Positions 17,400 through 26,163 of a stretch of 64,000 bases of DNA are shown piece after piece; positions within the stretch are counted from its first letter, which is position 1; every line of letters begins with the position of its first letter. Source of the DNA: Escherichia coli (lineage in GTDB: Bacteria > Pseudomonadota > Gammaproteobacteria > Enterobacterales > Enterobacteriaceae); assembly GCF_030013595.1 (NCBI RefSeq), contig NZ_CP122768.1. One strand, given 5' to 3'. The notes under the pieces were generated by a model. It made no database searches and was not told where the DNA came from. It saw only the letters and a list, made by a program, of their open reading frames with translations. The position numbers were made by a program, and so were the translations under genes.

Positions 17400-17834
17400 T
17401 TATTTATGAATATAATATAACTGAACATCATATTCATTATCACTTAAAACTATTAGTCGATCAGGAGATGTAAATGCTAATGAAAGATCATATGTTTCAT
17501 TTATCGAAAACAAACTCAATATGAAATTTGAAAAATTTTCGACATGAAGAGATATGCAAACATCTCCATTATAGAATATATTGCAAAGAATATCTTTTTT
17601 CACATTCAGTGTGCTTTCAACATCTCTCGCTAGATCATTAATATTTAAAGGTAAATTGAAAACTCTCCTTTCAATAATATTATCGGTTTTATTTATTGCC
17701 ATTAGCATTTCTCGATGCCACATGAAGTCATTCTTACGTAAGAATGATACATCAAAGGAAGTGACACCATTTAATTTAGAAGCATAATCTTTTGCTCTAA
17801 TTAAATTTAATTTATCTTCAAGGCTAATTTTCAT
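17400..17834 (-). CDS. Putative Rhs immunity protein
   Basis: 144 aa, very AT-rich, starts 37 nt after the Rhs stop on the same strand; no recognisable family. Confidence 0.5.
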   Translation of the reverse strand: MKISLEDKLNLIRAKDYASKLNGVTSFDVSFLRKNDFMWHREMLMAINKTDNIIERRVFNLPLNINDLARDVESTLNVKKDILCNIFYNGDVCISLHVENFSNFILSLFSINETYDLSLAFTSPDRLIVLSDNEYDVQLYYIHK

Positions 17835-17871
17835 AATATATATGATGATCCTTAGTTACAGGGTCATTGAT

Positions 17872-19119
17872 CTACTGATATCTATCACTTTTGAAATCGT
17901 ATGTTCTAGGATCAGCGCCCGGTTTAGGTTGTCCTGCATGTGCGTGAGGGCCAGGAGCCCTAGGATCTGCCGTGTGCTCGACTACAACTTTCTTACGTCC
18001 GTAGGCATCCGTATATTCATAATATCGCCCATGAGACCCTAAATCTTCCGAATATTTATAATTTGTTTGTCCCCTTCTTCTAGGATCATTTCCAACTGTC
18101 CATTGCCTATTAGGTTGCTGTGAACGAGGTATGCCCGCAAGATCTTTTGCTTTATTTAGTGCCTGACGACGGTTTCTTAATTCACCACATTTCAGACCAA
18201 GCGGATCTATCCAGCTTGCTGGATTAGGCGCGTAAGCATACAGGTTCAGCCCGCCCGCCAGCCCTATCGGATCCGTTACCATGAACCGCCCGACATCCGG
18301 ATCATAGTACCTGTGCAGATTGTAGTGCAGCCCCGTTTCCCTGTCGAGGTACTGTCCCTGGTAGCGCAGGTTCTGCTCCACCCCGCCGTGGTCCTTCTCC
18401 TGTATCGTGTTACCCCAGACCTGATACCCCGTCTCCCACACGATTTTCCCGTCGCTGTCCGTCATCTCTTCCGGCGCGCCGTTCACATCCGTGTGAAAAT
18501 ACAGTATCCGGTTCGGGCCCTCTTTGCCCGCCTTATCCACCCGCGCCAGCGGTTCATAACTCCCCGGGTCCCTGTAGATGTACAGGCTGTCTGTTCCCTC
18601 CGGCCTGCTCTCCTGCGCCAGCCGCATTCCGTCCCATAAAAATTTTGTCCGGTTGTACGGTTTACCGTCAGGACTGATGTGCTGTTTTTCCGTCCGCCTC
18701 CCCAGCGCATCGTACACATACCGGTACGTCCCCCGCGCTGTCGTCACTTCCACCATCCGGTGTTCCGCATCATAACGGTAACTCTGCGTGCCGCTCCGCC
18801 CCTCCTTTTCCACCGCACGGCCAAATTCGTCGTAACGGTAGTGCACACCACGGTAAGACATCAGCCGGTTGAACGGCACCACGCTGTTTTCTGCCGTGGC
18901 CCTTTCCCCCGCGCGCCGCGCCAGCAGGTTTCCCGCCGCGTCGTACTGCCAGCTCGCCAGATACCCCTCATCCTCCGAGCGGCACGCCGTGATGCGCCCC
19001 GTGGGGTCGTAGAAGTAATCCGTTTCCCCCCGCCGGCTGTGCCGCGTCTTCAGCAGTTCATCCTCGCCACTGTAGCTGTACTGCCGGTCCGTGAACGTCT
19101 CCGGTACCACCCCGCGCAT
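17872..19119 (-). CDS. Rhs protein, C-terminal segment: YD repeats, DPxGL core end and ~106-aa polymorphic tip; in frame with the upstream Rhs ORF across a TAG
   Basis: YD-repeat units (YRYDEFGRAVEKE, YRYDAEHRMVEV, YVYDALGRRTEK), DPIGLAGG...DPLGL, then KCGELRNRR...GPHAHAGQ...DRYQ. Confidence 0.8.
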   Translation of the reverse strand: MRGVVPETFTDRQYSYSGEDELLKTRHSRRGETDYFYDPTGRITACRSEDEGYLASWQYDAAGNLLARRAGERATAENSVVPFNRLMSYRGVHYRYDEFGRAVEKEGRSGTQSYRYDAEHRMVEVTTARGTYRYVYDALGRRTEKQHISPDGKPYNRTKFLWDGMRLAQESRPEGTDSLYIYRDPGSYEPLARVDKAGKEGPNRILYFHTDVNGAPEEMTDSDGKIVWETGYQVWGNTIQEKDHGGVEQNLRYQGQYLDRETGLHYNLHRYYDPDVGRFMVTDPIGLAGGLNLYAYAPNPASWIDPLGLKCGELRNRRQALNKAKDLAGIPRSQQPNRQWTVGNDPRRRGQTNYKYSEDLGSHGRYYEYTDAYGRKKVVVEHTADPRAPGPHAHAGQPKPGADPRTYDFKSDRYQ

Positions 19120-19167
19120 CCCGCTGTATGTCTCCCTGCGCTTCAGCCGCCCGCCGGGGTCGTAAAG

Positions 19168-25019: not shown

Positions 25020-25240
25020 AATTAATCCTTTTAACTAGAAATGGATAAGTGCTAATAAGAAATCTTACAGAGAATAAAATATGCAATATATTCGTAGCTG
25101 GCATAAAACATCTCAATACTTATGCGTGCTACTGAAGATACTATCAACCATATATGCCTTGAAGAATGCACCGTCATGTTAACCTGGTGGAAACATTCAC
25201 CTAAAGTACATTAATAAAACTAATAAAATTATTTAATTTT

Positions 25241-25597
25241 TTATTTGATATGATTATCATCAAGTCTTAAAATACGTTCTCCGGTTCTAATTATGCTAAA
25301 ACCATAGTATTCTTTTTTACTTCCGGAAGAGAGCATATATTTCCCGATATACATAACATCTGAAGATAGCTCACTTATATCAATACATACGGGTTCGAAC
25401 TGACCTGTCACTCTTTTCAACTTTATTGCATTGCCATATTTACCTTCATATAAAACATAATTTGAAATAATATTCCCATCGTCTGGTTTTGAACAAATCT
25501 GTCCGTCTTGCAAATATACACTACCGGGTAACAATGGGCGAACATAATCACCAACAGTGCATCCCGACAAAAAGAAAAACAAAAAGAATCTCTTCAT
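25241..25597 (-). CDS. Lipoprotein, putative periplasmic immunity protein
   Basis: Signal peptide plus lipobox (FLSGC); start overlaps stop of the upstream HExxH gene (ATGA). Confidence 0.6.
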   Translation of the reverse strand: MKRFFLFFFLSGCTVGDYVRPLLPGSVYLQDGQICSKPDDGNIISNYVLYEGKYGNAIKLKRVTGQFEPVCIDISELSSDVMYIGKYMLSSGSKKEYYGFSIIRTGERILRLDDNHIK

Positions 25598-26163
25598 ATG
25601 ACACCCGCAGGAAATAAATTAAGCACCTTTTTGTATTTTTCCGATAGAGTGTTCACTGATTCAGTTGTATCACCTACATAGTTAACATTTGCCAAATCAG
25701 CCACCAGTCCATAGTTAATTAATAGCCAATAATCAGCAACTATAGATGCTTGTTGTTCCATGGAATAAGAAGAAATTGACTGTAAATTAAGATCGTAATG
25801 ATAATTTGCCGCCCAAGAAAATAAACCACGCAACTTAACTGCATACCCTTTCTGATATTGCCAAACATGCATCATTTCATGAATAAACAAGTGAGAAGCA
25901 CCTGCTACTGTTTCACGATCACCAGGCATTGCTTGCGATGAATAATCTGAACTATAAACAGCATCAGGATAATACATTTCCCCGTTTGGGGTCATCGCTG
26001 TTCTTTCCCCTTGACCAGGCAAATATTTTTCATTGTGGATCCATACCTTGCTATAATCAATTGTATTCTCAAAAATCGATCTGGCCAATGTTAATTCACC
26101 AGATGTCATTCTCCTTAATGACATATCCTTTCCCCTGGAAATAATATCTTTCAGATAAAACAC
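25594..26163 (-). CDS. HExxH zinc-metallopeptidase-like protein, candidate toxin/effector
   Basis: HEMMHVWQYQKG motif; no signal peptide; track start is GTG, ATG alternatives at 26124 and 26109. Confidence 0.55.
   Translation of the reverse strand: MFYLKDIISRGKDMSLRRMTSGELTLARSIFENTIDYSKVWIHNEKYLPGQGERTAMTPNGEMYYPDAVYSSDYSSQAMPGDRETVAGASHLFIHEMMHVWQYQKGYAVKLRGLFSWAANYHYDLNLQSISSYSMEQQASIVADYWLLINYGLVADLANVNYVGDTTESVNTLSEKYKKVLNLFPAGVI

Follow-up and report, generated by a model that had tools for sequence, protein, structure and literature searches.

What occupies, in this E. coli chromosome, the hotspot known in K-12 as degenerate rhsE, and is it still a working weapon? At this site the stretch of DNA that we analysed (64 kb, hereafter the window) carries a run of genes, all on the minus strand, that very probably form an accessory ("orphan") cargo island of a type VI secretion system (T6SS), with two effector/immunity modules, the first of which is disarmed in this genome. 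The island is of an already well-understood kind of E. coli T6SS system, decayed here. It sits as an insertion with ansP on one side and the ydcC H-repeat on the other and was found, with unchanged gene order, in 184 of the 5,426 complete E. coli genomes searched; thus, the hotspot houses a two-effector T6SS cargo island in ~3 % of them. The closest complete relative, H1, is 99.9 % identical over 20.7 kb. ORF calling recovered every gene listed in the initial annotation, in the same place and order, and most of its family guesses held up in HMM searches, where the matches of the island genes were all far beyond chance (Table 1).

Table 1. Features of the cargo island and its flank, in window coordinates; H1 is the closest complete relative.
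Feature	Position	Strand	Description
ydcC, ISAs1-family "H-repeat" transposase	15727-16863	-	NF033564, 400.9 bits
SymE-like ORF	16967-17344	+	NF010128, 49 bits, below its cutoff
isrA sRNA, antisense	17086-17214	-	Rfam RF01385, 112.6 bits (gathering score 51)
Candidate immunity gene for the HNH tip	17400-17834	-	144 aa, 26.9 % GC, intact, 100 % identical to H1
Rhs frame past the first stop	17872-19167	-	last YD repeats, RHS-associated core, Tox-HNH-EHHH tip
Rhs N-terminal 1111 codons, to premature TAG	19168-22503	-	prePAAR, TMD region, PAAR region (weak match), DUF6531, YD repeats
Eag (DUF1795/DcrB) chaperone	22522-22974	-	150 aa, intact, between vgrG and rhs
VgrG/TssI spike	23025-25019	-	664 aa, intact
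Candidate periplasmic lipoprotein immunity protein	25241-25597	-	118 aa, lipobox L-S-G-C13
VgrG2b-type zinc-metallopeptidase effector, stand-alone	25594-26124	-	176 aa from ATG at 26124

The delivery parts of the first module are readily recognized. The VgrG-like spike of the initial annotation scores 555.5 bits against TIGR03361 (cutoff 186) and 415 bits against TIGR01646, and Pfam resolves it into gp27-like (Phage_GPD, PF05954), OB-fold (Phage_base_V, PF04717) and gp5 C-terminal (PF22178) domains. Over residues 12-613 it is 76 % identical to the VgrG of the T6SS core cluster that H1 carries at aspV, and then diverges at its C-terminus. The protein encoded next, labelled "DcrB-related protein" in RefSeq, had been taken for a DUF1795/Eag chaperone, rightly so: it matches Pfam PF08786 at 68.0 bits (E 1.1e-18), and Eag proteins are defined by a PF08786 HMM score above 40 bits (Ahmad et al. 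2020) together with a gene adjoining a prePAAR effector; here, eag lies 18 nt upstream of rhs. Among PDB sequences, Eag finds weak matches to SciW (6XRR/6XRB); the top matches of this query, complement-receptor repeats, are spurious.

The Rhs protein opens with the AARxxDxxxH motif that had been noticed there, AARQGDALLH, at residues 7-16 (nt 22456-22485). Of the "hydrophobic segments and PAAR-like motifs" also proposed, one N-terminal TMD region stands, a single strong stretch at residues 13-78 (Kyte-Doolittle maximum 2.21), another at 160-178 being marginal. PAAR is matched weakly, in two separate parts, Pfam PAAR_motif at 291-321 (E 3.7e-4) and a fragment at 97-118; NCBIfam NF033420 scores 19.7 bits, below its cutoff of 124, and the E-values of the Pfam and NCBIfam matches are ~4e-4 to 7e-4. 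This region nevertheless aligns with the PAAR region of Pseudomonas protegens RhsA (PDB 7Q97). DUF6531 (395-473), at least 10 RHS repeats and the RHS-associated core (TIGR03696, 99.9 bits) follow, then the DPxGL motifs DPIGL, at residue 1411, and DPLGL, at 1433-1437 (nt 18193-18207). Similarity to most relatives breaks off exactly after DPLGL (query position 793, window 18192).

With 223 bits to the N-terminus and 629 bits to the core of P. protegens RhsA, the island Rhs is, judged by sequence, a class I prePAAR effector with a closely related core. P. protegens RhsA-EagR1-VgrG1 (7Q97) and Salmonella Rhs1-SciW (Ahmad et al. 2020, PMC7773334; PMC8765631) are characterised members of this class, and the island Rhs shares with RhsA and Rhs1 the AARxxDxxxH motif, one TMD region, a putative PAAR, a DUF6531 plug, a YD-repeat cage and DPxGL, as well as the gene order: vgrG first, then a DUF1795 gene and, directly after it, rhs. 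Compared with RhsA, the island protein has ~100 more residues within the PAAR region; the resemblance of its Eag to SciW is distant; and, unlike both RhsA and Rhs1, it carries a Tox-HNH-EHHH tip and its gene is cut by two amber codons.

These two codons decide the state of the module. As one intact ORF, "an Rhs gene" of the initial annotation does not hold, two stops having gone unnoticed there. ORF calling splits rhs into 1111 aa and 415 aa, because an in-frame TAG at codon 1112 (19168-19170) replaces the CAG of the relatives, H1 included (Q1112*), and a second TAG, at codon 1544 (17872-17874), replaces their AAG (K1544*) and ends the frame early. Before the second stop arose, the ancestral frame reached 17824, overlapping the start of the immunity gene; in close relatives such as NZ_CP062824 Rhs is uninterrupted, 1559 aa long. 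Each of the two changes substitutes a base, and neither lies in a homopolymer. Both stop alleles are private to this genome: among the 5,426 complete E. coli genomes, neither the 61-mer around stop 1 nor that around stop 2 has an exact match, in 119 and 71 matching genomes respectively. Two premature amber codons therefore leave no full-length Rhs toxin as the sequence stands, and module 1 is, on this reading, disarmed and its Rhs gene a pseudogene, not to be counted among the weapons of this genome. The spike, the chaperone, both immunity genes and the metallopeptidase are free of lesions, and all genes other than rhs are identical to those of H1. Thus, of the "complete VgrG-Eag-Rhs-immunity delivery module" first proposed, the VgrG, the Eag, the prePAAR type of the Rhs and the adjacent immunity gene stand, and the completeness does not.

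What has been lost is the nuclease tip. It begins at nt 18192, and its intact allele (L002) matches PF15657 with E 2e-8 over model positions 2-69 of 69. In the alignment, the shortened allele of the window lacks the last 16 residues, the invariant His117 among them, and a full-length Tox-HNH-EHHH domain with its conserved E/H...HxH...HH residues is absent. A PDB sequence search returned no solved HNH-EHHH structure. The neighbouring 144-aa ORF, AT-rich as had been remarked, encodes a protein that matched no known family in profile searches. Tip and ORF each occur in 71 of the 5,426 genomes. The ORF overlaps the tip end at the rhsC locus of strain 13P477T, and in Pantoea alhagi it overlaps the end of a DUF8093-Tox-HNH-EHHH protein. 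Since it co-occurs with the tip and pairs with it in Pantoea too, we regard the 144-aa ORF as the candidate cognate immunity gene, an assignment based on distribution and adjacency. The initial proposal of a polymorphic C-terminal toxin with its cognate immunity gene immediately downstream gains from this co-inheritance, the adjacency being kept across loci and genera. Tip and partner would then form a putative toxin/immunity cassette, mobile across genera as well as between the rhsC and rhsE loci. The candidate PAAR-RhsA-Tox-HNH-EHHH effectors of Salmonella SPI-6 (PMC10469887) have the same architecture and, at ~1,500 aa, the same size as the island Rhs; some of the immunity proteins predicted for SPI-6 effectors are Imm50 (PMC10469887), whereas the island protein is of no known family.

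The HExxH protein and the lipoprotein had been left uninterpreted in the initial annotation. In its longest form the HExxH ORF spans 25594-26163 (189 aa from GTG), but the ATG at 26124 is the start used in RefSeq relatives and family homologs. A signal peptide is absent. HExxHxxQxQ and a downstream E-Q-Q are invariant in it, and the homolog alignment marks H82, E83, H86 and E123 as the invariant metallopeptidase residues. Pfam and NCBIfam searches gave no match, DUF4157, an early candidate, being likewise unsupported in Pfam. Its homologs form 184 clusters across Enterobacterales; in one cluster the protein is fused to a PAAR domain. The AF2 model (pLDDT 91.5) has as its best Foldseek match the effector domain of VgrG2b (6H56; E 4.7e-9, probability 1.00, TM 0.65, 32 % identity).

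The start of the lipoprotein gene overlaps the metallopeptidase stop by 4 nt. The lipoprotein matches NCBIfam NF045617, "putative T6SS immunity periplasmic lipoprotein", reaching E 2.3e-7 but, at 30.9 bits, not the cutoff of 43; it has no match in Pfam, DUF7480 included, and in pairwise comparison it resembles the DUF7480 partners of homologous effectors weakly. A DUF7480 gene is always the next one after these homologous effectors. Together, the modelled fold and the gene arrangement indicate that these two genes make up another effector/immunity pair, in which the effector is a metallopeptidase of VgrG2b type and the lipoprotein the candidate immunity partner. The C-terminal metallopeptidase of P. 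aeruginosa VgrG2b, with PA0261 (PDB 6H56), is alike in the HExxH motif, the downstream Glu and the fold; there, however, the enzyme is fused to VgrG, and the island protein is not. The small stand-alone metallopeptidase effector has an experimental precedent in SARI_02727 of Salmonella arizonae (PMC12992299), which, with its partner SARI_02726, resembles the island pair by description: the island effector is likewise ~180 aa and stand-alone. As in the VgrG2b and SARI systems, a small lipoprotein gene comes next and overlaps the effector stop; unlike in those systems, the lipoprotein stays below the DUF7480 (Pfam) and NCBIfam cutoff levels. In databases, genes of this pair are often mislabelled "type IV secretion protein Rhs". 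PADLOC assigned none of the region's small proteins to a defence system.

How would such an island work? By analogy with characterised homologs, in intact relatives Eag would shield the N-terminal transmembrane helices of Rhs, and the VgrG trimer would be capped by prePAAR/PAAR. Inside the Rhs cage, the C-terminal His-Me-finger (Tox-HNH-EHHH) DNase would stay enclosed until its release by cleavage at DPLGL, and the 144-aa protein would guard sister cells. In this genome, Q1112* and K1544* block full-length Rhs and strip the invariant histidine from the nuclease. Module 2 would add a small VgrG2b-type HExxH zinc-metallopeptidase working in the prey periplasm, with the lipoprotein as its immunity partner. 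To be fired, the cargo would need a T6SS core encoded elsewhere in the genome.

Could the module be functional after all, the TAGs being sequencing or assembly errors, or codons read through by an amber suppressor? The remaining genes, intact and identical to those of H1, and the uninterrupted frame of close relatives would fit this, and, both stops being amber, one suppressor tRNA could read both. Yet substitutions outside homopolymers are not the usual type of assembly error, the gene carries two independent nonsense codons, and the 64-kb window holds no tRNA gene that could act as a suppressor. As a rule, natural isolates of E. coli have no such suppressors. We therefore hold a functional module to be highly improbable. 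Alternatively, the 1111-aa prePAAR-TMD-PAAR-Rhs fragment might be kept as a toxin-less structural tip that binds Eag, caps VgrG and lets other cargo, for example the metallopeptidase, be carried. PAAR/Rhs effectors are reported to contribute to T6SS assembly (review PMC11925235), and neither the prePAAR, TMD and PAAR regions nor Eag and VgrG are damaged here. But the cage would lack its last ~430 residues (C-terminal core and plug) and would likely misfold, and a further nonsense codon downstream suggests that selection has relaxed, not that a new function is maintained. In Enterobacter cloacae, secretion reportedly needs an intact Rhs cage, which we also count against a structural role; we find it unlikely. 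A broader version, in which the lineage would have been selectively disarmed, losing the nuclease (through two ambers here and possibly an independent frameshift in sister strains) and keeping spike, chaperone, prePAAR-PAAR cap, both immunity genes and the periplasmic metallopeptidase, with the truncated Rhs as a toxin-less tip that lets the T6SS fire other cargo, strikes us as quite unlikely.

The decay could also reach further than module 1. The whole island might be a silent relic of a lineage whose T6SS is decaying, delivering no cargo, with only the immunity genes still mattering, as protection against armed neighbours. The core cluster of H1 has an annotated internal stop in hcp and a tagK broken up by IS66/IS3; the H1 Rhs tip has a frameshift in a GGG run; the window has its two nonsense codons; and both immunity genes are perfectly conserved. 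However, the frameshift and the hcp stop of H1 may be sequencing artefacts, further hcp copies may exist, and VgrG, Eag and metallopeptidase are without lesions. Such a general silencing is possible, though we lean against it. Our preferred reading thus remains a cargo island with one module disarmed.

Its parts are all of characterised types, and the value of the case is mostly one of annotation. Islands of the type VgrGO1-EagR-Rhs-CT, whose cargo T6SS1 delivers, are known in E. coli (Ma et al. 2017, Environ Microbiol 19:345, as cited in PMC6730261, PMC7216683 and bioRxiv 10.1101/2024.03.05.583533). Going by the descriptions available in these citing papers, they resemble the present island in species, in the vgrG-eagR-rhs-immunity order, in lying away from the core cluster, and in their polymorphic Rhs-CT tips and orphan tip/immunity cassettes. 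They differ in that an HNH-EHHH tip at the rhsE site is not listed in the available parts of these papers, and in that the present rhs is a pseudogene.

The name of the locus also needs qualification. The site does match the K-12 position yncG-yncH-rhsE'-ydcD, and it shares with the K-12 rhsE pseudogene and ydcD the place between ansP and the ydcC H-repeat. In blastn, however, the island has no DNA similarity to K-12 rhsE, ydcD or yncGH, and the classical RHS core model NF041261 (RhsA-E) gives its two Rhs pieces 201 and 128 bits, far below the cutoff of 2000. On the missing blastn match and the 201 bits against 2000, we reject orthology to K-12 rhsE. "rhsE locus" thus holds as a chromosomal position and not as sequence kinship; the island Rhs is of a different lineage at the same hotspot, its tie to rhsE being positional only. 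In the vgrG2-rhsE island of EHEC EDL933 (PMC7216683), a vgrG likewise lies upstream of rhsE.

As the initial annotation had said, T6SS core genes are absent from the 64-kb window in NCBIfam searches. Four ORFs at 52-64 kb (158, 168, 784 and 1258 aa), considered as candidates, were rejected: NCBIfam identifies a lambda TipJ tail protein, and this part of the window is a prophage tail region. On the other side of the immunity gene, an Rhs element flank occupies 15727-17344, and its arrangement of ISEc1 and SymE also adjoins orphan rhs tips in 13P477T.

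The minus-strand gene order proposed by the initial annotation agrees with an ORF listing of 15-29 kb, and the genes are of the kinds it named. The 664-aa protein is indeed a VgrG (TIGR03361, 555 bits) with gp27, OB-fold and gp5-C domains, and the 150-aa protein is a DUF1795/Eag chaperone, scoring 68 bits against PF08786, for which the published criterion is >40 bits (Ahmad et al. 2020, PMC7773334). The Rhs protein carries AARQGDALLH at residues 7-16, a single strong hydrophobic region (residues 13-78), a PAAR region matched in two pieces, DUF6531 and at least 10 YD repeats; it aligns with P. 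protegens RhsA (7Q97) at 223 bits over the N-terminus and 629 bits over the core. What had been missed is that the Rhs gene is not intact: two amber codons split its frame. Thus, the type of system stands, a VgrG-Eag-Rhs-immunity module, but its completeness in this genome does not.

Coordinates of the island genes and of the adjoining SymE/isrA pair
Feature	Position	Strand	Basis or remark
SymE-like ORF	16967-17344	+	NF010128 49 bits, below cutoff; RefSeq 'SymE family type I addiction module toxin'
isrA sRNA, full-length	17086-17214	-	Rfam RF01385 112.6 bits vs gathering score 51
Immunity candidate, 144 aa	17400-17834	-	26.9 % GC
Rhs frame	starts 22503	-	ORF listing; split by stops
Eag/DUF1795, 150 aa	22522-22974	-	ORF listing
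VgrG, 664 aa	23025-25019	-	ORF listing
Lipoprotein, 118 aa	25241-25597	-	lipobox LSGC; 4-nt overlap with upstream stop
HExxH ORF	25594-26163	-	ORF listing of 15-29 kb

The first stop, a TAG at 19168-19170, is codon 1112 in the translation of 22503→17842 (…GRLSTR*LYDPGGRL…); past it lie the RHS-associated core (TIGR03696), DPIGL at residue 1411 and DPLGL at 1433. The second TAG, at 17872-17874, closes the frame at codon 1544. In NZ_CM149870 (H1), the closest complete genome with 22 substitutions and 1 indel across 20.7 kb, these codons are CAG (Gln) and AAG (Lys), and the Rhs protein of NZ_CP062824 is unbroken, 1559 aa long and ends in …DRYQKINDPVTKDHHIYYEN. We then searched with a 61-base probe centred on each TAG: none of the 119 genomes matching the first probe did so exactly, nor did any of the 71 matching the second, and all carried one mismatch. 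Taken together, these comparisons mark each stop as a derived change, private to this genome. Both stop-making changes are substitutions and neither lies within a homopolymer; H1 has its own 1-bp deletion in the tip, inside a GGG run, which may be a sequencing artefact.

The tip, that is the C-terminal toxin domain, covers the whole Tox-HNH-EHHH model (PF15657) when intact, and His73, His83, His85 and His117 are invariant in an alignment of 21 homologs. The second stop falls at tip position 107, so the DHHIYY motif with His117 is lost from this allele. Taking the sequence as it stands, the Rhs toxin is disabled twice. In the Rhs 3' core, 7 of the 22 substitutions relative to H1 crowd into 76 bp (18571-18646, codons 1286-1311), mostly non-synonymous, a pattern that resembles a short patch of gene conversion from another Rhs paralog.

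The 144-aa ORF downstream matched no known family. It is present in 71 of 5,426 genomes, as is the tip. At the rhsC locus of 13P477T it overlaps the end of an orphan tip, a 70 %-identical homolog in Pantoea alhagi does likewise with a DUF8093-Tox-HNH-EHHH protein, and in Gilliamella a homolog lies within an array of Rhs tip/immunity cassettes. In most island-bearing genomes similarity begins only at query 793 (window 18192), directly past DPLGL; by its placement, this is the classical breakpoint of Rhs C-terminal displacement. The base composition is a mosaic: the Rhs core has ~62 % GC, and values of 27-44 % characterise the tip, immunity gene and upstream pair. Of the 71 genomes listed, most carry the tip and 144-aa gene away from rhsE; in the one inspected (NZ_CP019273 2,098,628-2,110,688), the orphan cassette sits at the rhsC locus, on the ybfD/ybgA side, with ISAs1 copies and further Rhs fragments around it. 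A tip joined to the rhsE-site Rhs is confined to the window and a few close relatives (H1-H5).

The upstream pair forms a second module. The HExxH ORF likely starts at the ATG at 26124, which agrees with the start in RefSeq relatives and family homologs and makes the protein 176 aa long. Its product matched no Pfam or NCBIfam family; its homologs form 184 clusters across Enterobacterales, one fused to a PAAR domain, and their alignment has an invariant HExxHxxQxQ and downstream E-Q-Q. The sole structural match of its AF2 model (pLDDT 91.5) is the VgrG2b effector domain 6H56 (E 4.7e-9, 32 % identity). In NCBI and UniRef the homologs are mostly named 'type IV secretion protein Rhs', which for this VgrG2b-like metallopeptidase family is a propagated misannotation, without Rhs repeats or any link to type IV secretion. 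A DUF7480 gene always comes next in Serratia and Acerihabitans. Salmonella arizonae SARI_02727 (189 aa, same fold) has been shown to act as an antibacterial T6SS effector, which its own DUF7480 lipoprotein neutralises (PMC12992299, 2026); the window lipoprotein resembles that immunity family weakly, at scores below threshold.

As the initial annotation had stated, the 64-kb window contains no T6SS core genes. In H1, a cluster at aspV (within 4,230,001-4,280,000) holds tssA, E, F, G, H, B, C, J, K, L and M, together with Tae4/Tai4, a tlde1-domain protein, a glucosaminidase-domain protein and its own VgrG-Eag-Rhs module. This core looks partly decayed, with an internal stop annotated in hcp, IS66/IS3 insertions splitting tagK and an IS3 abutting tssH. 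The window VgrG is 76 % identical to that of the H1 cluster over residues 12-613; BLASTP found no similarity between the two Eag proteins.

The island, in the same gene order, occurs in 184 of 5,426 complete E. coli genomes. K-12 synteny is retained on both sides (ansP-yncE and ydcC-yddH-nhoA), and ~17.0-26.9 kb stands in place of yncG-yncH-rhsE'-ydcD-yncO-yncI'. Since this interval shares no DNA similarity with the K-12 segment, save one 124-bp, 77 %-identical intergenic match, and since the Rhs protein fails the classical RHS-core equivalog model, 'rhsE locus' is a positional label only. Every part is of a known kind: E. coli VgrG-EagR-Rhs-CT islands dependent on VgrGO1, EagR and T6SS1 have been published (Ma et al. 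2017, as cited in PMC6730261, PMC7216683 and bioRxiv 10.1101/2024.03.05.583533), vgrG islands at rhsE are on record in EHEC (PMC7216683), the prePAAR/Eag mechanism is known structurally (Ahmad et al. 2020, PMC7773334) and PAAR-RhsA-Tox-HNH-EHHH architectures are catalogued in Salmonella (PMC10469887). The novelty of the island is low; only the specific tip/immunity pair appears to lack earlier experimental characterisation.

Around the island, isrA lies exactly antisense to the SymE-like ORF, a type I toxin-antitoxin-like pair between the immunity gene and an H-repeat transposase; at the 13P477T rhsC locus, orphan rhs tips are flanked by a matching ISEc1 and SymE arrangement. At 15120-15717 pptA, which K-12 has between ydcC and yddH, is absent and replaced by an AT-rich stretch of ~600 bp (38 % GC) without K-12 similarity. 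NZ_CP062824 has pptA, a sulfatase gene and a GGDEF gene there, so this junction is likewise variable. Further along, 52250-63984 is a lambdoid prophage tail region, in which a 1258-aa ORF matches the lambda TipJ C-terminus and the neighbouring ORFs of 191-784 aa had no NCBIfam match. Near the prophage, a 391-aa ORF (49035-50210, + strand) resembles helicases and restriction enzymes weakly (models for RadD, EcoAI R subunit, Dnd and DpdF, each scoring far under its cutoff) and may represent a defence or phage helicase gene.
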